DNA from: Escherichia phage BB1
Sequence record: NC_106597.1
Strand: one strand, 5' to 3'
Length of the DNA: 64,000 nt
The translations under genes were made by a program, and so were the position numbers. A model generated the notes under the pieces. That model was not told the origin of the DNA. It worked only from the letters and a program-made list of their open reading frames with translations, and did no database searches. Positions 7,095 through 57,832 of the stretch are shown here, piece after piece. Position 1 is the stretch's first letter. Each line of letters begins with the position of its first letter.

Positions 7095-9662
7095 TTGAAA
7101 ATCGCAGTAGTTGATAAAGCTCTAAACAACACTCGTTATGATAAACATTTCCAGCTATACGGCGAGGAAGTTGATGTATTCCATATGTGTAACGAGAAGT
7201 TATCTGGTCGTTTGCTTAAAAAGCACATTACTATTGGAACACCAGAAAACCCATTTGATCCTAATGATTATGATTTTGTTATACTAGTAGGTGCCGAACC
7301 TTTCCTGTACTTTGCAGGTAAGAAAGGTATTGGTGATTATACCGGTAAACGTGTAGAGTATAATGGATATGCTAACTGGATTGCGAGTATCAGCCCAGCC
7401 CAGTTACATTTTAAACCTGAAATGAAACCAGTTTTTGATGCAACAGTAGAGAATATCCACGATATTATCAATGGTCGTGAGAAGATTGCAAAAGCTGGTG
7501 ATTACCGTCCTATTACTGACCCTGATGAGGCGGAAGAATATATCAAGATGGTGTATAATATGGTTATCGGACCTGTCGCATTCGACTCCGAAACCTCAGC
7601 ACTATACTGTCGAGATGGTTATCTGCTTGGTGTTTCTATGTCTCACCAAGAATATCAGGGTGTATATATCGATTCTGATTGTCTCACAGAGGTTGCAGTA
7701 TATTATCTCCAGAAAATTCTGGATAGTGAAAACCACACTATTGTTTTTCACAACTTGAAGTTTGATATGCACTTTTATAAGTACCATCTGGGACTTGCTT
7801 TTGATAAAGCGCATAAAGAACGCAGGCTCCATGATACCATGTTGCAGCACTATGTTCTAGATGAACGTCGTGGTACTCATGGCTTGAAATCTCTAGCGAT
7901 GAAGTACACCGATATGGGTGACTATGACTTCGAACTAGATAAGTTCAAAGATGATTACTGCAAAGCACATAAAATCAAGAAAGAAGATTTCACCTATGAT
8001 TTAATTCCGTTTGATATTATGTGGCCTTACGCTGCGAAAGATACAGATGCTACCATACGTTTGCACAACTTCTTCTTACCAAAAATTGAGAAGAATGAAA
8101 AACTTTGCAGTCTGTATTACGATGTTCTAATGCCTGGTTGTGTATTCCTACAGCGTGTTGAAGATCGTGGTGTACCTATTTCTGTTGATCGTTTAAAAGA
8201 AGCTCAGTATCAGTTAACCCATAATCTGAATAAAGCCCGTGAGAAACTGTATACTTATCCAGAAGTCGTTCAGCTAGAAAAAGACCAGAACGAAGCATTT
8301 AACCCAAACTCTGTTAAGCAGCTACGTGTTCTTCTGTTTGATTATGTTGGTTTAACTCCAACAGGTAAACTGACGGATACTGGAGCAGATTCTACGGATG
8401 CAGAAGCTCTGAATGAACTGGCTACGCAGCATCCAATTGCTAAAACTCTGCTAGAGATTCGTAAGCTGACTAAGCTAATTTCTACTTATGTTGAGAAAAT
8501 TCTTCTGAGTATTGATGCAGATGGTTGCATTCGTACTGGTTTCCACGAACATATGACTACTTCTGGTCGTCTGAGTTCTTCTGGTAAACTGAACCTGCAA
8601 CAGTTACCTCGTGATGAATCTATTATCAAGGGTTGTGTAGTAGCTCCTCCTGGGTACCGTGTAATCGCGTGGGACTTAACAACTGCGGAAGTTTACTATG
8701 CTGCTGTTCTATCTGGTGATAGAAATATGCAACAGGTATTTATCAACATGAGAAATGAACCTGATAAATACCCTGACTTCCACTCTAACATCGCACACAT
8801 GGTATTTAAGCTCCAATGCGAGCCTCGTGATGTTAAAAAGTTATTCCCAGCTCTGCGTCAGGCTGCTAAGGCAATTACCTTCGGTATTTTGTATGGTTCT
8901 GGTCCGGCTAAAGTAGCTCATTCTGTTAACGAAGCTCTTCTGGAACAGGCTGCTAAGACAGGAGAACCGTTTGTTGAGTGTACTGTTGCTGATGCGAAGG
9001 ACTATATCGAAACTTACTTCGGTCAGTTCCCGCAGCTTAAGCGTTGGATTGATAAGTGCCACGATCAGATCAAGAATCATGGATTTATCTATAGTCACTT
9101 TGGTCGTAAACGTCGTCTGCATAATATCCATTCAGAAGACCGTGGCGTTCAGGGTGAAGAAATTCGTTCTGGGTTTAACGCAATCATTCAGTCTGCTTCT
9201 TCTGATAGCCTACTTTTAGGTGCTGTAGATGCAGATAATGAGATCATTTCTCTTGGCCTAGAACAAGAGATGAAGATTGTTATGCTGGTTCACGACTCCG
9301 TAGTTGCTATTGTTCGTGAGGATTTGATCGACCAATACAATGAAATCCTGATTCGTAATATTCAGAAAGACCGTGGTATTAGTATTCCTGGCTGTCCGAT
9401 TGGTATTGATTCAGATTCTGAAGCTGGAGGTTCTCGTGACTACTCTTGTGGTAAGATGAAGAAACAGCACCCATCAATCGCTTGTATTGATGATGATGAA
9501 TATACTCGTTATGTCAAGGGTGTATTACTTGATGCAGAGTTCGAGTATAAGAAACTAGCTGCAATGGATAAAGAGCATCCAGATCATAGCAAATACAAGG
9601 ATGATAAGTTTATTGCTGTATGTAAAGATTTGGATAACGTGAGAAGGATTCTCGGTGCTTAA
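7095..9662 (+). CDS. DNA polymerase, family A, with 3'-5' exonuclease domain
   Basis: Exo motif FDSETSALY; motif B RQAAKAITFGILYGSG; motif C LVHDS; TTG start 7 nt after AGAGGAG; 855 aa, as recalled for T5 polymerase. Confidence 0.9.
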   Translation: MKIAVVDKALNNTRYDKHFQLYGEEVDVFHMCNEKLSGRLLKKHITIGTPENPFDPNDYDFVILVGAEPFLYFAGKKGIGDYTGKRVEYNGYANWIASISPAQLHFKPEMKPVFDATVENIHDIINGREKIAKAGDYRPITDPDEAEEYIKMVYNMVIGPVAFDSETSALYCRDGYLLGVSMSHQEYQGVYIDSDCLTEVAVYYLQKILDSENHTIVFHNLKFDMHFYKYHLGLAFDKAHKERRLHDTMLQHYVLDERRGTHGLKSLAMKYTDMGDYDFELDKFKDDYCKAHKIKKEDFTYDLIPFDIMWPYAAKDTDATIRLHNFFLPKIEKNEKLCSLYYDVLMPGCVFLQRVEDRGVPISVDRLKEAQYQLTHNLNKAREKLYTYPEVVQLEKDQNEAFNPNSVKQLRVLLFDYVGLTPTGKLTDTGADSTDAEALNELATQHPIAKTLLEIRKLTKLISTYVEKILLSIDADGCIRTGFHEHMTTSGRLSSSGKLNLQQLPRDESIIKGCVVAPPGYRVIAWDLTTAEVYYAAVLSGDRNMQQVFINMRNEPDKYPDFHSNIAHMVFKLQCEPRDVKKLFPALRQAAKAITFGILYGSGPAKVAHSVNEALLEQAAKTGEPFVECTVADAKDYIETYFGQFPQLKRWIDKCHDQIKNHGFIYSHFGRKRRLHNIHSEDRGVQGEEIRSGFNAIIQSASSDSLLLGAVDADNEIISLGLEQEMKIVMLVHDSVVAIVREDLIDQYNEILIRNIQKDRGISIPGCPIGIDSDSEAGGSRDYSCGKMKKQHPSIACIDDDEYTRYVKGVLLDAEFEYKKLAAMDKEHPDHSKYKDDKFIAVCKDLDNVRRILGA

Positions 9663-10152
9663 TTTCAAATTGCCCGTATATGCTTTACGGGCGTTTGTAT
9701 CAATTGAGCAAGAAGGTGATTATTCCGTAATTACAACAAGATATAATAAATATGTGCTAGATAATAGGAAGTTGCCTGGCACATTTTCTCAACGTAGGCT
9801 TATTCTATTTGAGAAACGGAAAGAATTACCATACAAGCTCTATCCTATTAGAGGTAGAATATCAATGTTGTCCCAATTAGTTGGGTCAAAGCGTAGCCAA
9901 TTTATAGATTCTGATGGAAATCTTATTAACTGGAAGAAAACTACGTTCTATGATGTTGTCACCTCTAAAGTTTTGCATTCAGCTAGAATCTATAACGGAA
10001 AATACCAATGCTATGTAGCTAAAGTTCCATATCCATTTGTATTATCCTATGTTCCAGCTTATATAAGCTATATTCTGGTAAATAATAGCCCTGTTATTTA
10101 TCAAGTCCATCAAGAGGAGCCTGAAATTCCTAGACTTAGAATAAAATTATGA
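9655..10152 (+). CDS. hypothetical protein
   Basis: GTG-initiated ORF overlapping the polymerase stop; AT-rich codon usage. Confidence 0.4.
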   Translation: MLNFKLPVYALRAFVSIEQEGDYSVITTRYNKYVLDNRKLPGTFSQRRLILFEKRKELPYKLYPIRGRISMLSQLVGSKRSQFIDSDGNLINWKKTTFYDVVTSKVLHSARIYNGKYQCYVAKVPYPFVLSYVPAYISYILVNNSPVIYQVHQEEPEIPRLRIKL

Positions 10153-40746: not shown

Positions 40747-42063
40747 TTATTTACCACGGGAAATAGAGTAAATTCCATAGCGCAGCGCATCACAAAGGTG
40801 AGAGTTAGCATCATGACGTGGTTTTTCACGTGATAATTTCTCTTCACCCTCTTGGAAATCCCACTTGTAGTTCTGCAATGCATGGATTAATGAGGAACAT
40901 GAAGCATCTACAATAATCTTACCCTGCTGGAATAGCGCTTGCAAGCATGCTAGACCGTCTAGGACAGATTTTTTAGCTGGAGCTGATGCAATTTCATGTT
41001 CATAAGCTAAGTCCTGACGGAACTGAGCTGCGGCAGAGTCAACAAAAACACGATCAACTTTATAACGATCTATACAGTGCTGAATATACGCAGCATGCTG
41101 AGCTGTAGTTTTCTCCGCCTGCTGGTACTCTTCTAATACATAGTAAGTATCTGTATCATAGTGATATTTAATAGTAAGAACTGCTGTAGGGTCACGATAA
41201 CCAACGTCAATGCCAAGCAACGTTTCGAATGCCTCATCATCTTTAAAGAAGTGACGCATACCTTTGAGGTCTTTAACATGATCGATAGCATTAAAGGTAT
41301 CAAAGATCTGACCTTCGAATACAGAGAAGTCAGCCTCGTATTCCTGGCGGAAGTAGTTTTTACTAACTGTACGGCGTGCTTCCTCAATATCATTCAAGTC
41401 AGCACGCGGGTTATCACGATATGTACCATGAATAGATACCCAGTTAGGCAACGTATCATCAAATCCGTAGGCGTAAAACTCTTTAAACCAGTTACCTCCA
41501 CGAGGGGTGGAAATAAATAGAGCCTTAGAATTAGGTTTATCTAGAGTAGGACGCAGCTGAACCCTGAAGGCATCACCTCCCACATCGGAAATTGCCGCCT
41601 CGTCAAAAATGATAAAATCATATGAACGTCCAACTGCGGAGTCAGCCTGAGCCGCAGAAGCTAGTTTAAATAGAGAACCATTAGCTAACTCAATCTCTTT
41701 ATCTTTAGCGTTCTCACGTTCGGTTTGTAGGCCATACTTCTTAATGAGACCACGAATCTGAGACCATCCGATATTGGCCAGTGAGTAGTTAGGGGCAACT
41801 ACTAGCACCTTCACATTAGGTTCCAGCAATTTTAGGAACCCAAGAGTATATGCTATAAAGGATTTACCTACACGGCGTGACACACACGCCGTTACAAAAC
41901 GATGTCTAGGATCTTCTAGAGCATTGATAATTGCTATTTGAGGACCATTAGGTGTAATACCTTCTTGCGCTAGTATTCCCGAAACAGGCAGACGAAAGAA
42001 ACGTTTGTCTATTCCGAAATCAATAACATCTACTGTGTTAACGTAGGGTCTTGATACTTCCAT
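40747..42063 (-). CDS. terminase large subunit
   Basis: Walker A-like SRRVGKS; Walker B-like FIIFDEAA; 438 aa. Confidence 0.8.
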   Translation of the reverse strand: MEVSRPYVNTVDVIDFGIDKRFFRLPVSGILAQEGITPNGPQIAIINALEDPRHRFVTACVSRRVGKSFIAYTLGFLKLLEPNVKVLVVAPNYSLANIGWSQIRGLIKKYGLQTERENAKDKEIELANGSLFKLASAAQADSAVGRSYDFIIFDEAAISDVGGDAFRVQLRPTLDKPNSKALFISTPRGGNWFKEFYAYGFDDTLPNWVSIHGTYRDNPRADLNDIEEARRTVSKNYFRQEYEADFSVFEGQIFDTFNAIDHVKDLKGMRHFFKDDEAFETLLGIDVGYRDPTAVLTIKYHYDTDTYYVLEEYQQAEKTTAQHAAYIQHCIDRYKVDRVFVDSAAAQFRQDLAYEHEIASAPAKKSVLDGLACLQALFQQGKIIVDASCSSLIHALQNYKWDFQEGEEKLSREKPRHDANSHLCDALRYGIYSISRGK

Positions 42064-42545
42064 TACTTCTTACCTCCAGTAGCTAGGGAAGTAATTAAGT
42101 CCATGTAGTTTTGATCCCCGGCTCCAGCAATAATATTATTCTGGATATTGGTCTGACTAGCAGGAGCTCGGACGGCAGCTTTAGCTTTTTCTAGCTCCAC
42201 CATCATTTTCATCTCTTCCATCTTCATTTTATGTGCCTTCCATAGAATATCCATAATATCCTGGTCAGAACCCATGCCAGTTTCTTCCAGTTCCTCCAGC
42301 TTACGTTTAATAACTTCATCTAGAACACCGAACAAACGATCTCTGTTACGGAAACCACTTTCCATAAAAATATCGTTTAAATAGTTCTTAACTTCACTAC
42401 GATTCATAATATCTCGGAAAGCAATTTCGGACATTCCAAGACTACGTGCGGCAGAAGGCACATCGCTACCACACTGTAAATAAGCTTCAATTACATCCAT
42501 CCCTTCAGGGGACATAAGATCTGGTACTAATACATCATTTGCCAT
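42063..42545 (-). CDS. terminase small subunit (putative)
   Basis: 160 aa with N-terminal HTH-like segment ([21 protein letters not shown]); directly upstream of large subunit. Confidence 0.5.
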
Positions 42546-45678: not shown

Positions 45679-45843
45679 TTTGGAAATCTCGAAATTTCAT
45701 AAGATTACACATGGAGGTGTGCCCAGTGGGTCGGGGGAGAATACTTAGTCTGCTAACCGCCACCCCCCGTTACTATTAGCAGGGTAATTGTTTCATCCTG
45801 CAACCATTTTAATCGCAGGATGAAATTATTTCAACTTTAATTA

Positions 45844-46578
45844 TTACGCAACTTTTAATTTCTCAATATATTGTTGCGGGCTGCAACTATATTCTGCGCG
45901 TTCTTCCTCGGTCATACCTTCCCAGCATAGTTTTAAACGGTCAGCTAGGAATTGATAATCATTATCATCGTCGAGCGATTCATCAATAAAGGTTTCACCT
46001 ATTAATGTTACACCTATTGATAGAATATCATTAACGGCTTGCGCGTCCAGCGTTTTAAATCCGTATGATGCTGCCGCCGATAGCACACCTTTATGATCAT
46101 CAATCATTGTAAAATCAGCGTTCGGATATAACTGTTTAAATAATTCAAAATAATAAGATTTATATACTGCGTCTTTGCTGTGGTATATTTCGCTAACTTT
46201 ATCAGCTTTAAAATATTTATGCAGTGTGTCGCGGGAAAATACGCGGATATTGCTATTTCCTCGACCTCGCAAGCCTTGTTTGCGCAAGAAATAATAGTCC
46301 GACTTACTCATCAATCGAGCGGTGCAAATAATGTTTAAAGTATTTGCATCATTCATGCACTGGCGCATATATTCAACCAATGGCAATAAAGTATCTTGCA
46401 TTATTAAATGATGTTTGCAGGCTTCATTTTTATATTTATTTAAATCTAAATTGCCCTCATTATCAAAGCAAGGCGCTACACGATGGAAAGAATTAACGAT
46501 AGTGCCGTCTAAATCCCAAATCATGACGCGGGAAATATGCGGGAAATTACGGAAAGAATTAATAATAGATTTATTCAT
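45844..46578 (-). CDS. dmp: HAD-family 5'-deoxynucleotidase (Dmp-like)
   Basis: HAD motif I near N-terminus (MIWDLDGTIVNS); 244 aa; GC-richer codon usage. Confidence 0.7.
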   Translation of the reverse strand: MNKSIINSFRNFPHISRVMIWDLDGTIVNSFHRVAPCFDNEGNLDLNKYKNEACKHHLIMQDTLLPLVEYMRQCMNDANTLNIICTARLMSKSDYYFLRKQGLRGRGNSNIRVFSRDTLHKYFKADKVSEIYHSKDAVYKSYYFELFKQLYPNADFTMIDDHKGVLSAAASYGFKTLDAQAVNDILSIGVTLIGETFIDESLDDDNDYQFLADRLKLCWEGMTEEERAEYSCSPQQYIEKLKVA

Positions 46579-46657
46579 TTGTTACGTTCTCCATTAAAGG
46601 GATTTAGTTATTTCAGCATTACCCGCTATTTATAAGCGGGTAATAATAAATTAACTA

Positions 46658-47053
46658 TTAAAGACCATAAGCCAACGCATCGGCAATAAAACTAACATCC
46701 TCACCTGATACGCTGGAACGAATACCAGCACAAGTATATACTTTTGCACTGATCAATTGATCATCAAGGCAAGCGGGGCAAGGCGCGACAACTGCAAAGG
46801 CAAGGCCGGATTTTACGGCGTCGATGATAATCGTTTCTTGCTTCACCGTATCAACATAAACACCTTTTGCTTTAATATGACTGGTTAGTTTGCCCTGCGT
46901 ATATGCGAATGTTGTAACCTGTAAAGCGTCATTGAAATCTAATAGATCATCAATAACATGCCCCGCCTCGACGTGGTAACGTTCGCCGTTAGAATAAACC
47001 AGAACAATTGAGGATTGAGCGCGGTCAAATGGGATGCGATTAGATTTAGCCAT
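46658..47053 (-). CDS. pre-early hypothetical protein
   Basis: 131-aa ORF with GGAG RBS; preceded by GC-rich hairpin. Confidence 0.5.
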   Translation of the reverse strand: MAKSNRIPFDRAQSSIVLVYSNGERYHVEAGHVIDDLLDFNDALQVTTFAYTQGKLTSHIKAKGVYVDTVKQETIIIDAVKSGLAFAVVAPCPACLDDQLISAKVYTCAGIRSSVSGEDVSFIADALAYGL

Positions 47054-47089
47054 GTTTATAACTCCAGTTATTTTAATAAGGAATTTAAT

Positions 47090-47347
47090 TTATTTGATAA
47101 TAATCTGCATTTGGTACGGCGTTAATTCACCGTTTACGGGTAAATTATTATCACTCAACCATTCATAAAAAGCGTCATCATCATCAAAAGGAACAACATC
47201 ATTATCACGATAATCGACCGTAATAATACCATCAGTATTAGTTTTAGCGGCTAGGATAGGCCCGAAGCTGTAAACTTTATCGGATTCCATTTCATCCGGT
47301 GAAATGAATGCTTTTTCGTCCAATGTTTTGGGTAGTGTAACTTTCAT
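47090..47347 (-). CDS. pre-early hypothetical protein
   Basis: Start moved to ATG 47347 (AGGAG 7 nt upstream); track ORF begins at TTG 47380. Confidence 0.45.
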   Translation of the reverse strand: MKVTLPKTLDEKAFISPDEMESDKVYSFGPILAAKTNTDGIITVDYRDNDVVPFDDDDAFYEWLSDNNLPVNGELTPYQMQIIIK

Positions 47348-47401
47348 TTTTTGACTCCTGTAATAGCGGCTATATTTCAAGCCGCTAGGGGAATAATTTA
47401 A

Positions 47402-49066
47402 TTATGCGAAGAATTTACCATTCTTAAAGTCGATCAAAGTACGCTGACCGTTTGCATAGGTAATTAAATGCGTTTGCGTCCAGCTTGACGCGCCAACGTT
47501 GTAACCCATATCCAGACTACCAGCTACTCCAGCGGTATAAACGCCACCGTAAATGCTAGCGGTATGGGTGTGTCCCGTGTTTAGCTTGCCCAATTTCTTA
47601 AACTGTTTAGGATTGCCACGACTGCCGTTAATGCCGTTGTGACCGTGTACACCGCACTCAATGCCTGCAATCTTGAAAGATTGGTCAGTGGTTAGGAAAA
47701 TGGCGTTAAACTCACAACCTGCAACCTTGCGCAGCGCATAATCTAGCACGTTAAAAGTATCATCATGATCACTGATCGCCGCGTAAATTGCAGCATTCAG
47801 GCGGTGATATAGTTCGGCGTTGGCTGGATCGTCTTTGATGTTAGCATTACGATCATCTAACCAGCGGGATAGCGCCAAATCGTGATTAGATTCAACAATG
47901 ATTGTTTGAGAGAAATCACGTTCCATTGATTCCAGCACGCGCCCCGTATCGATAAGATCATCCAGAACTTTATCACGTCCAGCGGCATACTGTTTTGCTA
48001 GGAATACACCGGATGCACGGTTATGATGATTGCGCGATGTAAAATCATGCACGTCATGAATAAACTGATATTTAGGTTTAAGAATATCAAGCAAGCTATT
48101 TTCGCCAGCCCATGACGCAACGGCACAATCATCATCTAATTTTTCGGCGTGAATATCGCCATATTGCAAGCCTAAAACATGCCCCGACGTTTCATAGCAT
48201 CCAGCAGGAGTAGCGCAAACATTCAGATCATAAAACACCCCGCTTTCATCCATCGTTTCAAGCTGGCGAACAAAAAATTCCCCGTCGTCGTCGAACTCAA
48301 CAATAAGCGCACCGAAGTTATGCAGCGCCTCGGCCTTTTGTCCTGCTTTCTGCTGAATGTAGTTTTTGAGCGTTGCCGTTCCGGTTGAATACATACGGCG
48401 CACTACTTCACCTTTTAAAGCTGGCACGCTTTCAGCGGTAATTTTAGCGTGACCAATTGCCAGCCCTTCAATATTTAAAGCCGTTGCAGTTTCTGCAAAT
48501 CCTGAAAGCGGATAGTCTGCGGTAGGCAAAACATTAATTTCAGCCATGAAAGCAAAACGGCGGTTATTTAAAAACACGTTTTTGCTGCAAATATATTTAT
48601 CAAATGCGGGATCGTATTTGATACCGTCTGCACCTTCTCCATTCTGGAAGCCGTTTTTATTATAAATATACTTAGAAACAAGCAAATCAGCACCGATATA
48701 TTCAGCGAATTTTTCCAGACTTGCTAAAAAGTTTTTATGTGGGAAAGTATTATTCTGAATCGACGTAATAATAAAGCGTTTACCCTGTTTTACTTCCCAT
48801 TGCTCAACCGTACTAGAAACAATCCCCGCCGCTTCTGGGCGCTCATCGTTTTTAATGGCTTTTGCTACTTTTGCCGCTTTCGGTTTAGCTGGTTTATTTG
48901 CTTCCAGCCAGTCGCAGATAGCGGTTGAATGCTTCGTTGTATCGTAGACCGCTTTTGATATATCGTCGCAGACTTCCAGTTTAGTAGCGCGCAGACGTTT
49001 ACCATAGAAATTAAAGTCAGCGGCCATTTTCAGGATAACGGTTTGTTTTTCTGCGGAAATAATCAT
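47402..49066 (-). CDS. A1: A1-like pre-early protein with metallophosphoesterase motifs
   Basis: 554 aa; GDIH, SNHD and GHTH motifs in calcineurin-like order. Confidence 0.65.
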   Translation of the reverse strand: MIISAEKQTVILKMAADFNFYGKRLRATKLEVCDDISKAVYDTTKHSTAICDWLEANKPAKPKAAKVAKAIKNDERPEAAGIVSSTVEQWEVKQGKRFIITSIQNNTFPHKNFLASLEKFAEYIGADLLVSKYIYNKNGFQNGEGADGIKYDPAFDKYICSKNVFLNNRRFAFMAEINVLPTADYPLSGFAETATALNIEGLAIGHAKITAESVPALKGEVVRRMYSTGTATLKNYIQQKAGQKAEALHNFGALIVEFDDDGEFFVRQLETMDESGVFYDLNVCATPAGCYETSGHVLGLQYGDIHAEKLDDDCAVASWAGENSLLDILKPKYQFIHDVHDFTSRNHHNRASGVFLAKQYAAGRDKVLDDLIDTGRVLESMERDFSQTIIVESNHDLALSRWLDDRNANIKDDPANAELYHRLNAAIYAAISDHDDTFNVLDYALRKVAGCEFNAIFLTTDQSFKIAGIECGVHGHNGINGSRGNPKQFKKLGKLNTGHTHTASIYGGVYTAGVAGSLDMGYNVGASSWTQTHLITYANGQRTLIDFKNGKFFA

Positions 49067-49156
49067 AGTAATAAAACTCCATTAAAGGGATTAGATTAAT
49101 AACGGCAATATTGCCAAATATAACGCCTCAAATAATAGGCGTTATAATTTGCAACA

Positions 49157-49354
49157 TTAATTTAAAGGCACTAGGCTAGAACTAACACCACAAGCAACGG
49201 CAGCGATAAAACAAAGCAAGCCCAAACGTTTTGCTAACTTAGATTTACGTTTAAAATAATATGAATCTAAATCATTTTGAAAATAAGCAAATAATAATGA
49301 GGCCGCCATAATAAACAAGCCTAGAATTAATGATTCAGTAGGAAAGAAAATCAT
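49157..49354 (-). CDS. small membrane protein (two predicted TM helices)
   Basis: 65-aa ORF with conserved upstream RBS element. Confidence 0.4.
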   Translation of the reverse strand: MIFFPTESLILGLFIMAASLLFAYFQNDLDSYYFKRKSKLAKRLGLLCFIAAVACGVSSSLVPLN

Positions 49355-49445
49355 TTTTTAAAACTCCTGATTTAAGGGAAGAAAATAACTATCGCTAAAC
49401 AGTTATATTATTGCCCCCTCACTAAAAGGGGGCAAGGTATAACTA

Positions 49446-49853
49446 TTATTCGCCTGCGGCTTGTTTTACTTCATCGGCAACGCCTAACAGTTGCGCTACT
49501 GCGTCCAGCGTTTCAAGTTTTGCACTTTCCAGACTTGCCAGATCGTCGGCGTCTTTGATAATGCCGGAATCAATAGCATGTTTAGCGATAACGCGCACAT
49601 AGTGAGCTTTACGCACAGAGCTACCGCCACCAACTTTACGCGGCTTATCGCTTTTTTGATAGGCTTTTGCACTGGTCAATTTTGAGCGAACGGATACAGG
49701 GGAAGCCGCGCCAACTGCTTTTGCAATCTCTTTTAAACCGTCGCTATTTGCGAAATCTAAACCGTTTTCATTAATTAACTGCTGATACATGGAAACAGCT
49801 TTCTGAGTGTTTTCTTCATTCCATGCGAATTTTGCGGTTTTAACGTTAGTCAT
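49446..49853 (-). CDS. putative DNA-binding protein (A2 candidate; shares motif with ORFs 300..710 and 3436..4203)
   Basis: 135 aa; basic stretch KPRKVGGGSSVRKAHYVR and HTH-like motif; conserved upstream RBS element. Confidence 0.4.
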   Translation of the reverse strand: MTNVKTAKFAWNEENTQKAVSMYQQLINENGLDFANSDGLKEIAKAVGAASPVSVRSKLTSAKAYQKSDKPRKVGGGSSVRKAHYVRVIAKHAIDSGIIKDADDLASLESAKLETLDAVAQLLGVADEVKQAAGE

Positions 49854-49951
49854 GATATAAACTCCTATTAGTTTAATTTAAGGGATTAGATTAACTTAAT
49901 GTTAATCGTTATATCCCCCTGAAATAAGGGGGATATAAAGTTAACACTAAA

Positions 49952-50203
49952 TTACAGAACAGCTTCCCATTTTTCGTTACGTTGAACAACCTTTACAACG
50001 TCGCCGGATTTAACGCGAACGTTAAAAACAGGTTTGCCGTTGTTACTACGTTCATTTTCAACATATACCGCGTCGATTGTATCAAACGGCATAAGCGCCG
50101 CGCCTTTAATACGTTCGGCCTTTCCGGTTAATTCATCCGTTTTAGTAACGAAAGGAATAAAAACGGATTGACCAATTTTTGGCGCGGTAATAACGTTTTG
50201 CAT
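49952..50203 (-). CDS. pre-early hypothetical protein
   Basis: 83-aa ORF with GGAG RBS; downstream of a large palindrome. Confidence 0.45.
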   Translation of the reverse strand: MQNVITAPKIGQSVFIPFVTKTDELTGKAERIKGAALMPFDTIDAVYVENERSNNGKPVFNVRVKSGDVVKVVQRNEKWEAVL

Positions 50204-50227
50204 AATATAAACTCCGAGTTATTTGGT

Positions 50228-50278
50228 GGATTGTTCCGCATTACCTGCTAGAAAGTAGCAGGTAATAAGTAACAATCC
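50228..50278. repeat. 51-bp compound palindrome
   Basis: GGATTGTT-CCGC-ATTACCTGCTA-GAAAG-TAGCAGGTAAT-AAGT-AACAATCC. Confidence 0.6.
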
Positions 50279-50406
50279 GCTCGCCAGTATAATCGATTTA
50301 AAGAACTCCACGTAGGCCGCTATATCCCAGTTAGGGGGCGGGATGCATTATGGTAAGCACCGACCGTCAAATTTTATCAAGTTATCGCTCTTATCGAACT
50401 GGGTAC

Positions 50407-50435
50407 ATCTTAAAACCTATCGGCTAGGTTGTCAA
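50407..50435 (-). promoter_or_regulatory. candidate sigma70 promoter for leftward pre-early transcription
   Basis: Minus strand -35 TTGACA (50430-50435), 17-bp spacer, -10 TAAGAT (50407-50412). Confidence 0.3.
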
Positions 50436-50635
50436 GCGGTTTTTTGCAGTTTTTTATGATTTTCTTTCAAGTCAATCATAATATTTCGCCAGATCATTTC
50501 TAAACCTTGCTGGCGACCTTTCTTGTACTGCGTGAATCTATATTTTACTGATCTTTGTGCTACTGTCAACAAGTTTTTTGTTTTGCTATCTAGTGCCTTA
50601 ATAGGCTTGCCAGTGATCAAAAGCGTTTGTTTCAT
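50432..50635 (-). CDS. hypothetical basic protein
   Basis: 67-aa ORF, first gene of the leftward operon. Confidence 0.35.
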   Translation of the reverse strand: MKQTLLITGKPIKALDSKTKNLLTVAQRSVKYRFTQYKKGRQQGLEMIWRNIMIDLKENHKKLQKTA

Positions 50636-51082
50636 ATCGTCGATTCCTTATAATGAATAAGTTTACCGCCGATAGGCTTTAAGATGTACCCAATTTTTAA
50701 AGAGCGTGGCGGTAAACTTCCCGCCGTGTAGTTCGTCATTGCCGCCCTACGAAATAAATAATAGGGGATTCCCGAAAATGGCGCAACCTTATTTTTGTAA
50801 AGAAACGTAAAGACACGATCCACCGGACGGCGTGCGGCGACGGCCTAAAATTAAAAGAAACGGGCGCGCGAATACCACAAAACATAGCAAATAGGCAAGT
50901 AATTTTTTCATTTATATTTACTTTGCCCTACTTGACAAAACCTAAAAAGCTCGTGACAGCGATAAACGGCTTATCCCTTTATGATGAGATGGCTAAAAAC
51001 TTCATCGCGTTCTAGGGCGTTTTAGGCGCATTCTAGCCTTGTTGATAACTTATCCCCAGAAGCAAAAATGAAATTTTCCTAG

Positions 51083-51115
51083 TTATCCACTTGACTTTTA
51101 TTTTCCAGTGGATAA
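51083..51115. promoter_or_regulatory. inverted pair of DnaA-box-like 9-mers
   Basis: TTATCCACT ... AGTGGATAA separated by 15 bp. Confidence 0.5.
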
Positions 51116-51398
51116 CTACTTATTTTATAAAATAAATTAATTGACTTTTATCTGTTAGTATGCATCGGAAAGATAGCAGACTAATAATTGCTAGGATGAT
51201 AATCATGCTGGTGGATTGTAACGGCTTAAATTATTAGCAGACTATTAATCACGGAAAATCTCATTAGCCAACTAACTATTTCATGATATATAATATACTT
51301 ATAAATTAATGAGAAATAATAATTATAATAAATAATAACTACAGTAAATAATAACTATAAGAAACTATCGGCCTAAGTGAGAACCACTATCATTTAAG

Positions 51399-51505
51399 TT
51401 ATTCACAACGTTATCCACAGCACAAAATAATTTGACACGATAGGCGGCGATATAAGGACTTTTGCACAGACTTATCCACAGGTTATTCCACTGTATAAAT
51501 ATACA
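51399..51505. promoter_or_regulatory. three direct DnaA-box-like sites plus CTGTATAAATATACA motif
   Basis: TTATTCACA, TTATCCACA (51411-51419), TTATCCACA (51472-51480), motif at 51491-51505. Confidence 0.55.
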
Positions 51506-51773
51506 AGGTAAAAAGGTAGTGTTAACAACTGCAATCAATTTTGAGCGGCCTAAATCGCATTCTAACGAGCTAAACGCTGCGGAGTAATATTAAAGTAAAG
51601 CCTTAATGCGGCGGCCTGGTGGCTTCACCGTGTTTTGCTCTTTATTACACCGCTGCGCGGTTAGCATAAAATTAGACGCTAGGCAAGGAAAATAAAAAGG
51701 TAAAATAATATTTGCCTATGCTAGAAAATTACCTTTATCATTCACTCACCGATTAACGAGGGAGGCCGAACAA

Positions 51774-52769
51774 ATGAGGCTGTATAAACCAGATAACGCA
51801 ACCGTCTTAAAAGGTGCATTGCGCAACCTGCTGGAGGGTAGCAAGTCAACCAGCATTAAACATTTTATTAACAAGGCTGAAACTATTCATCAAAACTTTT
51901 TTGATGATTATGACGGTTATGATATAGATAGTTTTCTACCACTATATAAGCAAGGGGCAACGCTTGTTTTATATAACCGTGATTGCCATATCTTTACAGG
52001 CAGGGGAGCGGGGCCGGATGCCGATTTTATTATTGCGCAGGGCAATAATATTGTTGCGTATCATAGCAATTCAGGCCGTCAATCATTTAATATAAATGGT
52101 TTTGAGCTTATTGGACTTGATCTGATAAATGGACTTTCTAGTATTGAGGGATTTTTAAATGTTATCTGGAAGTATTTACCCGCTGGATGGCATAAGCCGG
52201 ATAATGACGGATCTCAATATACCGCTATAATGGCTTTTGATGGCGACGGTAATTTTTTGTTACCACGGGAGCTATACCCGTATATTTATGATGGGGATAT
52301 TGAAAGCGCTGGTTTTTCTTTCTGGAAAGATGAAGATCAGATTATTGACAGTATAGAAAACCATGCTGTAAATTCTAACACTCAAACTACTGAAAACAAA
52401 GGAAAAAATACCATGACTAAGATTGCTAACATCGTTGCCGCTAATAAATCCGCTGTTGTAAATGCTGCAAAACTGGAGGCGGGTAAAATTGCATTAACTC
52501 AAATCACGAAAGTAGCGGCTAAAAAAGCGCCGTTTATGATTAAAGGTTATATTGATACGCCGATTGGTCGTGTAGTGATCGCTAACCTGCTAAGTGTAGC
52601 GGTTGACCAGTACGCACCGAGTAACCAAAAGGCGAAAGCGGTAGCAGGTGCAGCTATGGAGGCGGCAATGTTGGAAATGGTGCAAAGTTTTAACATCGCT
52701 GAAATGATTGATGAAATGGTAAAAGGTATTGATATTTCTACTTTTACCACTAGCACCGAAAGCGAGTAA
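51774..52769 (+). CDS. hypothetical protein
   Basis: 331-aa ORF with GAGGGAGG RBS; followed by GC hairpin. Confidence 0.5.
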   Translation: MRLYKPDNATVLKGALRNLLEGSKSTSIKHFINKAETIHQNFFDDYDGYDIDSFLPLYKQGATLVLYNRDCHIFTGRGAGPDADFIIAQGNNIVAYHSNSGRQSFNINGFELIGLDLINGLSSIEGFLNVIWKYLPAGWHKPDNDGSQYTAIMAFDGDGNFLLPRELYPYIYDGDIESAGFSFWKDEDQIIDSIENHAVNSNTQTTENKGKNTMTKIANIVAANKSAVVNAAKLEAGKIALTQITKVAAKKAPFMIKGYIDTPIGRVVIANLLSVAVDQYAPSNQKAKAVAGAAMEAAMLEMVQSFNIAEMIDEMVKGIDISTFTTSTESE

Positions 52770-52834
52770 TAATAACTAGCGGGGATTATTTCCCCGCTTT
52801 ACTATTCCCTTGTTAACTAATAGGAGGCTAATAA

Positions 52835-53329
52835 ATGGCTGAGGAAAAATACGGCTTCTCGCTAGGGGAAGTGAGCACGGCTAAACACGATATGATCATT
52901 TTAGTCGATTGTCATACAGGTTATTGCGGAGAAGGTTGGACGGAGGAACATTTTGTTCCTGCTGGTACGGATCTGGACGCTTTCGCTCATGAAATGGCTG
53001 TTGATAATGCTTCTCGTTTTGGTAGCGATGGCTATGAAGACGAAGAAACTGGCGAATGGTATGAAAATGAAAACGTATATGCAAGCCTTTATCATTATCA
53101 ATTAAGTAAATCCGGCACATATGTAAACGGCGGCGATCCTATTAATTCCGTCATGAAATTAATTATTAAACATGGTGGCGTCGAGATAATTGATAACAAA
53201 GCGGTAATATATGCAAACCGATTAAAACAGCTTATTTATATTCCTGATAGTACCCGATGGGAGGAATATGCTGTTTTGCATGACGAATTAAAACGATGTT
53301 TCAATATTGAAGCCTTACAAGTAGTCTAA
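52835..53329 (+). CDS. hypothetical acidic protein
   Basis: 164-aa ORF with AGGAGG RBS; followed by terminator-like hairpin. Confidence 0.5.
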   Translation: MAEEKYGFSLGEVSTAKHDMIILVDCHTGYCGEGWTEEHFVPAGTDLDAFAHEMAVDNASRFGSDGYEDEETGEWYENENVYASLYHYQLSKSGTYVNGGDPINSVMKLIIKHGGVEIIDNKAVIYANRLKQLIYIPDSTRWEEYAVLHDELKRCFNIEALQVV

Positions 53330-53342
53330 TGTAAAGTTTTGT

Positions 53343-53371
53343 AAAGGTCGCCTTTTATGGTGGCCTTTTTT
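53343..53371 (+). terminator. terminator-like hairpin with G-U wobbles
   Basis: AAAGGTCGCC-TTTTAT-GGTGGCCTTT then T-run. Confidence 0.4.
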
Positions 53372-53434
53372 GTTATAATGCCTTTACACCAAAACGGTGG
53401 ATTGAAAATTTTCCCAAAAATTTGGAGGCTTAAA

Positions 53435-53665
53435 ATGGTTGCTTATTCTTCTGCTAGTCATCTGTTTACCGCGCAAGGCTGGGTATCTAATCGTGCTGTC
53501 ATCTATGAAATGGTGCAGGAGTTCGGCATTGCTAAAACCTATAATACCATTCAGGAACTATATAACGCCGATAAAATCGATCAGCAAACGGCTGGCTTTT
53601 TGCTGGATACCCTGAAAGCTGAACATTGCACTAAAAAACAAGCCGCTAAAATTGTTTTAATGTAA
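53435..53665 (+). CDS. hypothetical small protein
   Basis: Start moved to ATG 53435 (GGAGG RBS); track ORF starts 53357. Confidence 0.45.
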   Translation: MVAYSSASHLFTAQGWVSNRAVIYEMVQEFGIAKTYNTIQELYNADKIDQQTAGFLLDTLKAEHCTKKQAAKIVLM

Positions 53666-53714
53666 TTAATAACGGGGCGATACTTTCGCCCCGATAACTA
53701 GGAGGCTATCACAA

Positions 53715-53864
53715 ATGGTTATTTTTCGATCTATTTTAGCGGGTATCTTGGGCGCTATTTTATCGTTATTTGCGATAGCTTTCGGCGTTCACGCTGTTAT
53801 TATTGGCGCTGGCATTGCCGTATTTTCTTATCTGTTAGGCTGCATGACTAGTAAAGGAGAATAA
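53715..53864 (+). CDS. small hydrophobic membrane peptide (49 aa; not in supplied track)
   Basis: ATG preceded by AGGAGG; translation MVIFRSILAGILGAILSLFAIAFGVHAVIIGAGIAVFSYLLGCMTSKGE. Confidence 0.45.
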   Translation: MVIFRSILAGILGAILSLFAIAFGVHAVIIGAGIAVFSYLLGCMTSKGE

Positions 53865-53866
53865 AA

Positions 53867-54079
53867 ATGATTCGTAACGTTTCCCTTGCACGTTCGAAAG
53901 GCTTTAAGCTGGTGGATGTAAACACGTTTGAGCGGGAAGATTGTAAAATCGAATATGTAGCACGTAACAAAAATGCCTTTCGTGTTACCGAGAAAAAATT
54001 CGACAAGCGCGGCAACGTGATAGCTGAAACAGTTAAACATTTTGCCACCTTTTATGCTGCCTTTCGTGGGGTGTTATAA
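53867..54079 (+). CDS. hypothetical small protein
   Basis: ORF with AAAGGAG RBS. Confidence 0.45.
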   Translation: MIRNVSLARSKGFKLVDVNTFEREDCKIEYVARNKNAFRVTEKKFDKRGNVIAETVKHFATFYAAFRGVL

Positions 54080-54080
54080 A

Positions 54081-54425
54081 ATGGTTATTTATGAAGGCAA
54101 TCGCTTTGTTGCTAATTGCCGTCCGGCATTATTAGCAAACTATTTAAATCAGCTTTCCCCAGCCTATAAGGGCGTTATTAATATTTATGAGGGCAAGGCG
54201 CATTATAAAATTAATGCGGTCGTTGCCCGTGAACTAGCGTTTCAATTTTTGACTTTTGCATCTTGTGACGTTCAGGTTATGGGGGAAGCATTAATTGCAG
54301 AAAATGAAGAGGATTTTATTAATATTTTCCGTAAGGTATGCACTGAGCGCTTGATAATGAAAGGCGCGTATATTCAATCAACTGCGGAAAGTATTGAAAC
54401 AGCATTTCGAAAGGTGGCGCAATGA
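54081..54425 (+). CDS. hypothetical protein
   Basis: Start moved to Met14 of track ORF 54042..54425 to remove overlap. Confidence 0.4.
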   Translation: MVIYEGNRFVANCRPALLANYLNQLSPAYKGVINIYEGKAHYKINAVVARELAFQFLTFASCDVQVMGEALIAENEEDFINIFRKVCTERLIMKGAYIQSTAESIETAFRKVAQ

Positions 54426-54491
54426 AATTATATATTTTCGTTGGTAATAGTAAGGCCGCTATTGGCAAAAATATATTTACTAGTGGTTATT

Positions 54492-54686
54492 ATGAGCAAT
54501 AAAATTATTGTTACCAAAACCAGTACAATGGTTGATGTTTTTTACGTTCCCGATACGCCGGAAAACCGACAAGCGGTCGAGCGTGGCGAGTATGATAAAG
54601 TGATTTATGATCACGATGGTTATTATCAACATTTGGTGGATTCCTACGGGGAGGAGGAAAAAATCACGCACCGACTACCAGACTAA
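54492..54686 (+). CDS. hypothetical small protein
   Basis: Start moved to internal Met (MSNKIIVTK); last gene before the repeat block. Confidence 0.35.
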   Translation: MSNKIIVTKTSTMVDVFYVPDTPENRQAVERGEYDKVIYDHDGYYQHLVDSYGEEEKITHRLPD

Positions 54687-54726
54687 TAATCACAGGGCAC
54701 AACTACTAGGAAGTGCCCCCCAATTC

Positions 54727-54751
54727 TCAAATGAGAATGATTCTCATTTGA
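54727..54751. repeat. perfect 25-bp palindrome
   Basis: TCAAATGAGAAT-G-ATTCTCATTTGA. Confidence 0.6.
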
Positions 54752-54944
54752 CCGCGCCCGAGATGGTTAGCCTGCTAATGGTTAGGGTGTTACGTGTCGC
54801 CTTGTGTGATCGTTAGCGAGCTAACCAATTTTTAAGCCTCCTCCAATTTTGCCATTGTTTTAGTATCCCCGCCAAAATTAAACGCGTTAGAATGCGATCT
54901 AGGACGTTTTAACGCTATATTAGAACTATTCACTGCGCAGGAAT

Positions 54945-55053
54945 ACTGTATAAATATACAGTAGGATAAGCTGTGGATAAGTCTGTTAATAACGCCTCAA
55001 AATGGCTAGGATTCTGTCAAGTCAAATCGTGCTGTTAATAAGTCTGTGGATAA
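54945..55053. promoter_or_regulatory. two DnaA-box-like sites in opposite orientation plus palindrome ACTGTATAAATATACAGT
   Basis: Palindrome 54945-54962; TGTGGATAA at 54972-54980 and 55045-55053. Confidence 0.55.
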
Positions 55054-55079
55054 CTTAAATAACAGTGTTTCTCACTTCC

Positions 55080-55260
55080 ATTCTTAAATGCAAATTATTA
55101 TCATTTGTATTTCACTATCTAACTAATAATCATTTCACTTTTTAAATGAGAATCGTTTCACTTCCTGAATAATTTTCATTTCACTTTTTAAATGCGAATG
55201 ATTCTCATTATCATTCCGCTTTTTAAATGCGAATTATTATCATTATCATTCGCATTCAGG
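55080..55260. repeat. degenerate tandem repeats of a ~30-bp unit containing TTTAAATG(A/C)GAAT
   Basis: At least four copies read directly. Confidence 0.55.
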
Positions 55261-55264
55261 CTAG

Positions 55265-55280
55265 CAGGGCAATTGCCCTG
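55265..55280. repeat. perfect 16-bp palindrome CAGGGCAATTGCCCTG
   Basis: Read directly. Confidence 0.6.
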
Positions 55281-55287
55281 CGCTTTT

Positions 55288-55886
55288 GTGCAAATCCGAC
55301 ATTGCTCCATGGGTGTTACGTGCGGGCGTGTATGTGCGAATCCGACAATTTTTGGTAGTGTGCAAATCCGACCCGAAAAATTTTTATAGTGTGCAAATCC
55401 GACAATGAATTTTCCTAAAAACTCCAGCAATCACGAACTGCGTTCGAATCCTGTGGGGTATGTGCAAATCCGACATGGTTTTTCTAGGATTAAGATGTGC
55501 GAATCCGACAAGATTTTTGTGACTTCGATTGGAGGGTGTGTGATTGTGTGAGTTTGGGGAGAAGTTGAAAGAGTGAGAGAAATTTGGGGGAACTGCGGGA
55601 GGGGTGCATGTTTGGTGCGGAGCACCTGATTTGCGGGGATTTTGTGGAAGAGTTGAGAAGATTTGGGTTAATTTGAGATAAGTGCAGATAAAGTAAAATT
55701 TTATTAGCTAAATGGGGCAAAATAGCTTGACAAGTGAAAATTTCTGTGGCTCCAAAAACTCAGGCAATCATGGGCCTTCGGCCCGAAATAATGCTGCCGT
55801 TTTCAGGAGATTATATGTTCCTAAAAACTTAGGCAATTGTGCAAATCCGACCAGTTTTTAAACTCTTGTCAGTGTGCAAATCCGAC
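55288..55886. repeat. eight direct copies of 13-mer GTGC(A/G)AATCCGAC, irregular spacing
   Basis: Copies start near 55288, 55334, 55360, 55391, 55462, 55497, 55839, 55874. Confidence 0.7.
55500..55700. other. C-depleted G/T/A-rich tract (~200 bp) with strong strand asymmetry
   Basis: Almost no C on + strand; GGGG/GTGTG runs. Confidence 0.5.
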
Positions 55887-55926
55887 AGTAATTTCTAGAA
55901 ATGTGTTTTGGAAAAATGTCTTCTAG

Positions 55927-55968
55927 AAATAACCGCCCTCCCAATAACCGCCCTGTATTAACCGCCTA
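55927..55968. repeat. three closely spaced direct repeats (A/T)TAACCGCC(C)T, iteron-like
   Basis: Copies near 55929, 55945, 55959. Confidence 0.5.
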
Positions 55969-56385
55969 TTGCTGGAGTTTCTAGGAATATGAAAACCGCC
56001 TAAGTTGACTAGAGTTTTCCTAGAAACTTAGGAGTCTAGAAGAAAGTGTTGTGCCATCCTAGCAGATGAGCGGCAACAGGTGTATCATCTTGAACACAAA
56101 TATTGCCTTTAAATATTATAAGGTAAATAAAAGTTAATATACCCCCATTTCATGAGAGTTAGTCCCTCTAGGCGCGTGCGATTTGATACATCCTCCTGAG
56201 TCTCGGGGAGGAAGAACAATTGACGAGAACCTGCGAACAGAACCGTCATCAAGTGTTTTCCTACGAGGAATGATGTAAATCTACGGCCTAGAGGTAAAAA
56301 CAAGTTGATGTTTTTAATCTATGAGATTATTATAACACATTATTCTCACGAATGTCAAGCAAATTTCGTTACTTTTAAATTTTCG

Positions 56386-57114: not shown

Positions 57115-57832
57115 CTTTATTAACCTTTAGAATAACTCCTTTTGACGCCATGAAAAGGAATGTTGCTAAGTAAGATGACTCGGAGTTTAGCGCAGAATAA
57201 TCTACACTTCCTCTAGGTCTAGTTTCTTGTTTAGTGTCAAGAATTGTTGCTATATCAAACTTAACAGACTTTGCAACTTTTCTAGCTTGTTCAGGATCAC
57301 GTAAAATTTCAAAGTGTGCAGCATCTAGAATAGGATTAGATGTTGTTGAGTCGTCAACTATACTTAGATGAACCTGCGCAAGTGTCGATACAATTCCTAG
57401 CTTTAATTCAGATAGAGAAGAATAAGGTGGTTCTACTTTCTTTGTAAGTCTAGGAAGATGATCGTATTTACATTGCTTAGGTGGAATCATCAAAATCTTA
57501 GGATAACATTCTAGGGCTGTCTTTGCACTTCCTTCTTTAAAATGTGGGAGTTCTTTATCAGCAAAGACATGGAATGAATCTGCTGAAAATCCTTTAATAG
57601 TCGGATCAACAGTTTGAATCAGACGACGTATACTAATATAAGAAGGAGCTAACGTAACTTCTTCTGCATCTTTATTATATTTAGGTTGTCCACTAGCATT
57701 AATGTATGCAGGATAGAACTCTGCACAAAATGCCACTGCATGTGCCTCTAACTCATTAAGCTGAGAAACACATTTCCCATTACAAGCTCTAGCTAATTTA
57801 ATAATCTCTGCTAAATTCTTTTTTATACTCAT
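57107..57832 (-). CDS. hypothetical protein
   Basis: ORF in co-oriented early operon. Confidence 0.45.
   Translation of the reverse strand: MSIKKNLAEIIKLARACNGKCVSQLNELEAHAVAFCAEFYPAYINASGQPKYNKDAEEVTLAPSYISIRRLIQTVDPTIKGFSADSFHVFADKELPHFKEGSAKTALECYPKILMIPPKQCKYDHLPRLTKKVEPPYSSLSELKLGIVSTLAQVHLSIVDDSTTSNPILDAAHFEILRDPEQARKVAKSVKFDIATILDTKQETRPRGSVDYSALNSESSYLATFLFMASKGVILKVNKDG

Follow-up and report, generated by a model that had tools for sequence, protein, structure and literature searches.

A repeat-dense block of Escherichia phage BB1 corresponds to Repeat Region 3 of T5, which holds the injection stop signal

The two-step transfer of bacteriophage T5 DNA has been known for more than 60 years, yet how transfer stops and restarts is not understood at the DNA level. 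The same question is raised by a repeat-dense block at positions 54700–56100 of a 64-kb stretch of Escherichia phage BB1 (hereafter the window; all coordinates are window positions unless another record is named), which a first-pass annotation had likened to the T5 injection stop and, in its layout, to a replication origin. The window belongs to a T5-like phage (Tequintavirus), and the block is almost certainly the orthologue of T5 'Repeat Region 3'—the non-coding, cis-acting region at the right (inner) end of the ~10-kb terminal repeat that holds the injection stop signal (iss). Taken as a whole, it is best explained as a composite iss region of protein-binding modules in a fixed order (probability roughly 0.85). 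The element is already known and the block is therefore a rediscovery, given that the T5 record annotates iss and that Davison (bioRxiv 10.1101/866236) describes the region repeat by repeat. Termini, nick and stop point are assigned to BB1 by homology throughout.

The block was matched by 473 phage records, nearly all from T5-like phages of Salmonella, Escherichia or Klebsiella (top match 93.6% identical), and identity is 85% with T5 and reaches 94% with other genomes of Tequintavirus. Its alignment is colinear with T5 (AY543070, ~9140–10608) and also with Spc35. Through the T5 alignment, the annotated 'injection stop signal (iss)' (misc_feature 9140..10149) transfers to 54678–55682, the minus-strand 'major DNA single-chain interruption' (9748/9749) to 55283/55284 and the end of the left terminal repeat (10219) to 55752. 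The comparison with the T5 terminal repeat that the first-pass annotation had suggested thus turns a resemblance into orthology, as iss, nick and repeat end all fall within or across the block. Davison's numbering equals that of AY543070 minus 80, so that the repeat ends published as 10139 and 10219 are one and the same, and the repeat inventory given there for Repeat Region 3 agrees with that of the block. Besides homology and a non-coding position inside the repeat, the block has the 131-nt element with its partner and the DRD series, and the order is that of T5: IRD'-spacer-IRC' with DnaA boxes, AT-rich DRE/DRC-type repeats, palindromes, nick, DRD 13-mers and AACCGCC repeats, with an overrun of ~270–350 bp into unique DNA. 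The two differ in the number of 13-mers (eight in BB1, nine in T5) and in that the first ~250 bp (54700–54946) and the DNA past 56094 cannot be aligned. The segment 56095–56385 is common to Spc35-type phages and is not found in T5.

The earlier statement that the block holds no credible open reading frame stands: none exceeds 80 amino acids (aa) in 54700–56100, and indels of 10 and 17 nt among relatives argue against coding. Over the equivalent locus of Escherichia phage MM-1 (1593–3314), as in some other deposited genomes, a dozen 'hypothetical proteins' of 30–50 aa are annotated across the repeat region; the indels of relatives, which are not multiples of three, argue that such small frames are over-annotation. 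Transcription converges on the block, with rightward genes on its left and leftward genes on its right, and a terminator-like inverted repeat (Table 1) probably ends the rightward pre-early operon. Promoter and terminator matches inside the block were weak, except for a terminator-like palindrome at the nick, and an Rfam search of the block returned a single match at chance level (an HIV element, E = 0.43). Beyond the block, a perfect sigma-70 consensus promoter (TTGACA-18-TATAAT with TG; minus strand, 56329–56358) is found immediately past the downstream end of the leftward early operon, facing the repeat boundary.

The repeats recur in related phages, and the elements are conserved across 20 relatives. 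Expressed as mean per-position identity to the window across these 20 related genomes, conservation is 0.90–1.00 for the 13-mers, 1.00 for a GC hairpin, about 0.99–1.00 for the palindrome with GCGC and 0.94 for IRD'-spacer-IRC', compared with 0.69 for adjacent coding DNA and 0.55–0.65 for some inter-repeat spacers; the non-coding elements of the block are therefore better conserved than the neighbouring genes. The elements listed by the first-pass annotation are all present at or near the places it gave, some in a different form, as described below; it had overlooked the DnaA-type boxes of this sequence and an SOS-box-like palindrome, as well as the 7.9% nick site and the place where the repeat ends.

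The first module in the proposed order is of host-factor type. An SOS-box-like palindrome with the CTGT-N8-ACAG form of a LexA operator stands at the left edge of the 131-nt IRD'-spacer-IRC' element, which pairs with an inverted partner, IRC-spacer-IRD, at 51375–51505 (73% complementary); a weaker SOS-box-like partner lies at ~51491–51506. Two pairs of DnaA boxes follow within the element. No convincing sigma-70 promoter overlaps the palindrome at 54944–54963, and the module differs from the SOS and DnaA boxes of E. coli in that it stands in a non-coding phage region with no recognisable regulated promoter; in sequence, the palindrome is one mismatch from the LexA 20-mer and TTATCCACA is the DnaA consensus. 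DnaA-like 9-mers (≤1 mismatch) are not above chance in the whole window (23 versus 19 expected), and what stands out is their clustering and conservation. All eight Demerecviridae lineages compared (T5-likes, IME260, My1, KEY, PR1, Proteus phage 1, Vibrio phi 3 and D411) have, in the corresponding region, CTGTAT-N4-ATACAG with DnaA-type boxes after it. The palindrome is not mentioned in the Davison preprint, and a literature search for T5 and a LexA box returned nothing; as far as we found, a near-consensus LexA box joined to DnaA-type boxes as one element kept in all eight lineages is new.

To the right of this module, the DNA becomes AT-rich and palindromic. The two perfect palindromes reported earlier (25 bp at 54727–54751, left of the module, and CAGGGCAATTGCCCTG at 55265–55280) are both present, whereas the 'tandem' (A/C)GAAT units proved to be something else: three exact copies of TTTAAATG(A/C)GAAT (55141, 55187 and 55222) are not arranged head to tail but lie inside 23-nt and 35-nt periodic repeats, where they form half-sites of 19-nt palindromes of the form AATG(A/C)GAAT-N-ATT(C/A)T(C/T)ATT. 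We infer that this block of repeats is the published DRE/DRC series. The published estimate of the shear point for first-step transfer (9618 in Davison's numbering) maps to ~55,230, that is, within the AT-rich repeats and left of all 13-mers. Next comes the nick motif, which is nearly invariant in relatives and ends 4 nt before the first 13-mer. The minus strand here reads A/GCGCAGGG at 55284/55283 (slash, break), fitting the published T5 consensus on the nicked strand (5'-R/GCGCRGG-3'), and the context CC(C/Y)(T)GCGC/ (CCCTGCGC/) occurs at four of four annotated T5 major nicks. On this basis, the 7.9% major single-strand interruption is predicted to lie between 55284 and 55283 on the minus strand (5'-pGCGCAGGG).

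The most numerous sites are eight exact copies of GTGC(A/G)AATCCGAC (GTGCRAATCCGAC), all on the plus strand as had been claimed, starting at 55288, 55334, 55360, 55391, 55462, 55497, 55839 and 55874. With up to one mismatch, the 13-mer occurs 11 times in the 64-kb window, whereas shuffled sequence predicts 0.06 occurrences. The extended site reads (A/G)TGTGCRAATCCGAC(A), often with a T-run after it. We counted nine copies in T5 and Davison gives nine DRD copies, which identifies the 13-mer with the published DRD repeat; the T5 copy missing from BB1 sits on a ~50-nt segment found in T5 and Spc35. The 13-mers are probably protein-binding sites: across the 20 relatives the sites are conserved and the spacers variable (the spacer between copies 7 and 8 has a mean identity to the window of only 0.55), and 50 of 51 13-mer-type sites in five lineages (the window, T5, IME260, My1 and phi 3) share one orientation. 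The remark that the factor reading such sites is not established still holds in a 2026 preprint, and a literature search for the 13-mer as text gave nothing relevant. The 13-mers would not be the most obvious 'stop' element, given that the published shear estimate at ~55,230 lies left of all of them. A role as determinant of nicking was considered and rejected, as the T5 nick sites at 18.5% and 32.6% share CCCTGCGC/ and have no 13-mer within 2 kb. We know of no convincing match between the 13-mer and the consensus sites of CRP, IHF, Fis, the LacI family, MarA or Fur.

Motifs of this type also occur outside the block. A tandem pair (GTGCAAATCCTAC and GTGCAAATCCGAC, 15 nt apart; 14934–14961) lies inside the coding sequence of D13 (SbcC-like), where it encodes VQILQVQIRQ; T5 has the pair as well, and it lies ~360 bp to the right of the site that matches the 64.8% major nick (GCGC at 14568–14571). 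As a conserved internal site this pair was rejected, as it is present in T5 and absent from D13 of Vibrio phi 3 and so is lineage-specific. A one-mismatch copy, GTGCATATCCGAC (58087–58099), lies on the same strand as the array inside a minus-strand early open reading frame (57832–58443); T5 has an exact core 13-mer at the equivalent place (~12153), and a lone copy ~1.8 kb past the array is seen in several IMG/VR contigs of T5-like phages.

The repeat boundary passes between the 13-mers. T5 position 1 aligns to 45720, as does the T5 junction between unique DNA and right repeat, and the repeat of the window has unique DNA of the right genome end to its left and that of the left genome end to its right. 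As the repeat is present once and is flanked in this way, the source record has the layout of a collapsed or permuted assembly or of a concatemer junction, not that of the physical linear genome. Position 55752 is predicted to be the right physical terminus of the mature genome and the position at which terminase cuts concatemers: by homology, the repeat ends of four annotated genomes fall there and seven IMG/VR contigs end at 55750–55752. The block thus straddles the inner edge of the terminal repeat, with 54700–55752 inside and the last ~350 bp (55753–56100) outside the repeat. The end motif recurs as TTGACA-N20/21 at the repeat ends of IME260 and My1 and as TTGAAA-N21 at that of PR1. Just inside the terminus, the reported 200-bp C-depleted tract was borne out (13 C in the 201 nt of 55520–55720; GC skew +0.66 to +0.69), and a C-poor tract occupies the same place in Klebsiella IME260 and Pectobacterium My1. 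G-quadruplex motifs (loops ≤12 nt) were absent from the tract in the window and in T5 and present in IME260 and My1.

Outside the repeat, 55753–56100 holds a hairpin, 13-mers 7 and 8, and the TTCTAGAA and AACCGCC repeats. A GC hairpin is indeed present, not as the GGGCC-TTCG-GGCCC described earlier but as GGGCCTTCGGCCC (13 nt, with a 5-bp stem and a 3-nt loop). The palindromic TTCTAGAA copies are at 55893 and 55921, as claimed, and the 'three iteron-like repeats' resolve into two exact AATAACCGCC and two AACCGCC variants; a AACCGCCCT pair outside the repeat end is shared with IME260 and My1.

Table 1. Coordinates of the block's elements, the terminal repeat and candidate protein genes in the window (strand: +, −, or. 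where no strand applies).
Feature	Position	Strand	Remarks
Terminase small subunit	42063..42545	−	phrog_3802; T5 orthologue is 'sciB: probable sciB protein' in AY692264
Terminal repeat, 10,033 bp	45720..55752	+	Once in the window; carries pre-early (first-step-transfer) genes
A1, DNA transfer protein	47402..49066	−	phrog_1745
A2, DNA-binding pre-early protein	49446..49853	−	phrog_1725 'DNA binding protein'; aligns to T5 A2
25-bp perfect palindrome TCAAATGAGAAT-G-ATTCTCATTTGA	54727..54751	.	9-1-9 core shared with AT-rich repeat units to its right
Terminator-like inverted repeat with T-run	54764..54833	+	Arms 54764–54778 and 54813–54827; T5 putative terminator 9275–9296 maps to 54817–54832
SOS-box-like palindrome TACTGTATAAATATACAGTA	54944..54963	.	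One mismatch from E. coli LexA 20-mer consensus
131-nt IRD'-spacer-IRC' element	54947..55077	+	T5 AY543070 9412–9542 (Davison 9332–9462, plus 80)
DnaA-box pair TGTGGATAA-gtc-TGTTAATAA	54972..54992	−	Consensus TTATCCACA and variant, 3 bp apart; arrangement as in Davison
DnaA-box pair TGTTAATAA-gtc-TGTGGATAA	55033..55053	−	Variant and consensus
AT-rich repeat block, GC 22–27%	55069..55260	+	23-nt and 35-nt periodic units; 19-nt palindromes 55191–55209 and 55226–55244
16-bp palindrome CAGGGCAATTGCCCTG overlapping nick motif CCCTGCGC (55276–55283)	55265..55283	−	T5 nick 9748/9749 maps here
13-mer copies 1–6	55288..55509	+	Inside terminal repeat; mean identity to window 0.90–0.99 in relatives
C-poor, G-run-rich tract	55515..55725	+	Fills last ~220 nt of terminal repeat
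Right repeat end, TTGACA-N20/ (…CTGTGGCTC/)	55727..55752	+	Annotated repeats of T5, Spc35, MM-1 and SIA3lw end at the equivalent of 55752
GC hairpin GGGCCTTCGGCCC	55772..55784	.	20 nt outside repeat; invariant in 20 relatives
13-mer copies 7–8	55839..55886	+	Unique DNA, 87 and 122 nt past repeat end; mean identity 0.99–1.00
Two TTCTAGAA palindromes	55893..55928	.	Further CTAG-containing inverted repeats up to 56050
AATAACCGCCCT ×2 (55928, 55943) and AACCGCC variants (55960, 55994)	55928..56000	+

Beyond the T5-likes, arrays of 13-mer-type sites were found in five phages: Klebsiella IME260 (11 sites, bracketing the repeat end at −148/+119), Pectobacterium My1 (10 sites, bracketing it at −364/+247), Erwinia KEY (8 sites), Vibrio phi 3 (12 sites of the variant GTGCAAAACCGA, overlapping the annotated repeat end) and Vibrio D411 (at least 4 sites of the variant ATGTGCGAAAYCTA). 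Module order is kept in IME260, My1, KEY and phi 3, whose A1 proteins are only 34–73% identical. As far as we found, 13-mer-type arrays next to or astride the repeat boundary in Klebsiella, Pectobacterium and Vibrio relatives are new, as is the array of the Erwinia relative. Two phages have other arrays instead: Providencia PR1 has a CGTCTARA array with an 8-nt period (locus 9615–9690), together with one degenerate 13-mer right after a GCGC motif, and Proteus phage 1 has a CCATTCTATTATTC array with periods of 15–18 nt (locus 7170–7357). In Vibrio phi 3, the gap that follows the DNA polymerase gene holds four GCACAAAACCGA repeats at spacings of 25–29 nt (record 70588–70682; locus 20589–20683), and an exact GTGCAAAACCGA lies inside a ligase gene (record 62531); both sequences are related to the 13-mer in the form that phi 3 has.

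How might these modules work together? T5 transfer is reported to pause at ~8% of the genome, and A1 and A2, both encoded in the same terminal repeat, are essential for second-step transfer, which makes them candidate trans-acting partners of the block. In the proposed series, a near-consensus LexA/SOS box and two pairs of DnaA-type boxes (54944–55077) would form the first module; AT-rich palindromic repeats (55069–55260), the 7.9% nick site (55276–55283) and six direct 13-mers (55288–55509) would form the second to fourth; the C-poor tract and the repeat terminus (55752) the fifth; and the hairpin, two more 13-mers and the CTAG and AACCGCC repeats in unique DNA the sixth. With the left end entering first, a pause with ~8% of the genome inside would put the first two modules (to ~55,230) at the cytoplasmic side, where proteins bound to them—host DnaA, as Davison proposes, and perhaps LexA too—would hold or mark the DNA until A1 and A2, made from the transferred DNA, restart transfer. 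We advance this pause mechanism tentatively. The SOS/DnaA-type module and the AT-rich palindromes appear to be the best candidates for the stop, given that no other part is as widely conserved and that they would have just entered the cell when transfer pauses, and this is compatible with Davison's DnaA proposal.

Several points weigh against this account. The literature consulted holds no experiment on which sub-element halts transfer or on what binds it, the DnaA and LexA sites are consensus matches, and the physical termini and the nick of BB1 are placed by homology. The 7.9% estimate is uncertain by a few hundred bp, so that it is not certain which modules are inside the cell at the pause. 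LexA is cytoplasmic and would have no obvious way to keep DNA at the membrane. Finally, 13-mer arrays are missing from Providencia PR1 and Proteus phage 1, although both retain A1, A2 and the LexA/DnaA-type module, and the 13-mers are thus not indispensable to the lifestyle of the family.

The arrays would be sites of one sequence-specific protein, for which the small subunit of terminase is the leading candidate at well short of even odds, with A2/A1 and some further protein each less probable and a host protein the least. Short repeats around a terminase cut are familiar from the pac hexamers of P1, the R-sites of lambda cosB and the short-repeat arrays next to the terminal repetition of T7. 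The block is like these in having several short repeated elements to either side of the predicted cut position 55752, no more than a few hundred bp away, and unlike them in that two members of the T5 family do without the repeats and that T5-type DNA is also a genome-transfer pause site. It is possible, if doubtful, that the 13-mers, the C-poor tract and the TTGACA-N20 end make up a terminase recognition and processing (pac/cos-like) site, with the small subunit binding repeats on both sides of the concatemer cut, and not an injection stop. The repeat end lies between copies 6 and 8 (−255/+87 nt) in the window and T5, the bracketing recurs in IME260 and My1, the phi 3 array overlaps the annotated end, and the left repeat end showed no comparable repeat arrays. 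The nick 4 nt from copy 1 is published to depend on the late genes sciA/sciB, and AY692264 annotates the small-terminase orthologue as sciB; the arrays around the terminus, their absence from the left end and this annotation point toward terminase. That annotation would also tie a gene of the single-chain interruptions to terminase. However, a homologous small subunit (52% identity in PR1, 42% in Proteus phage 1) and a similar end motif are found in both phages that have no 13-mer arrays, lineages with and without arrays cannot be told apart by terminase identity, and the nick sites at 18.5% and 32.6% are without 13-mers. A search of the literature for a T5 pac site found nothing. Packaging is usually expected to be last-in-first-out. 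One paper (PMC3517423) has the left end of T5 packed first, at odds with the left end also leaving the capsid first; given this conflict, we do not rely on packaging direction. An earlier reading, which we judge unlikely, has A2 and A1, both pre-early proteins, work on the paused DNA through the 13-mers, so as to restart transfer or to set the pause. A2 is DNA-binding and is needed with A1 for the second step, and array-less PR1 has the most divergent A2 of the set (28–30% identity), though the A1 proteins of the Vibrio phages are more distant than its own (46%); this role and this divergence point toward A2, and the arrays come directly beyond the estimated stop point. Yet Proteus phage 1, with no arrays, has an A2 (39%) closer than that of array-bearing phi 3 (35%), so that the phyletic pattern of A2, A1 and small-terminase identity fits A2 for PR1 and not for Proteus phage 1, and fits terminase for neither. 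A stop at ~55,230 would moreover leave the 13-mers outside the cytoplasm in which A2 is made, and an injection role explains neither the two copies outside the repeat nor the bracketing of the terminus.

Davison's model assigns the stop itself to DnaA: the boxes in IRD'-spacer-IRC' and in the partner IRC-spacer-IRD would bind membrane-associated host DnaA and arrest the entering DNA, after which A1/A2 would cut right of the block. In this full form we rate it as rather improbable. Two consensus and two variant boxes, paired 3 bp apart, are present as published, DnaA-type boxes occur in eight of eight lineages, and the boxes are just left of the estimated stop; against this, DnaA-like 9-mers are, as given above, not above chance in the window as a whole, and the partner element is dispensable, as a viable T5 mutant deleted for hegG..017 lacks the span that contains it and some lineages have no partner (Davison, 10.1101/866236). 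The origin-like character noted by the first-pass annotation holds for the layout, as DnaA boxes, a 190-bp tract of 22–27% GC, six direct 13-mers and a G-rich tract follow in series. Iteron-type origins such as RK2 oriV, pSC101 ori and P1 oriR likewise combine DnaA boxes, an AT-rich tract and direct repeats in series; the block differs in having no known cognate initiator for its 13-mer 'iterons' and in its convergent transcription, which is not the usual context of an origin. The literature quoted by Davison also places T5 origins elsewhere, close to the centre of the genome, and the replication genes of T5 do not enter before the second step. Given that literature and the gene orientation, it is very unlikely that the block is an origin that starts replication from the repeat or duplicates the repeat. 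A further reading joins two of these ideas as overlapping machines: a LexA/DnaA landing pad would set the first-step pause, and the terminus-bracketing 13-mers would be the T5-type terminase recognition site for the right-boundary cut (and, through sciB, for the 7.9% nick) and not an injection stop. As a whole, this combination is speculative and rather unlikely. The composite iss region thus remains the preferred reading of the block, with A2 and A1 as candidate partners and the terminase small subunit as the alternative candidate reader of the repeats at the boundary.

For this known region, the analysis gives, for each repeat family, its position with respect to the 7.9% nick and the repeat boundary, and puts the 13-mers around the genome terminus, to the right of where the stop is estimated to lie. 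It adds 13-mer-type arrays in Vibrio, Pectobacterium, Klebsiella and Erwinia relatives and their absence from Providencia and Proteus relatives, as well as the SOS-box-like palindrome and DnaA-type boxes as one element present in all eight lineages. For work on T5 transfer and packaging, the points of interest are that this SOS-box/DnaA-type module is conserved across the family and that 13-mers stand on both sides of the terminus, and the resulting parts list narrows the choice to a few mutations and four or five purified proteins.

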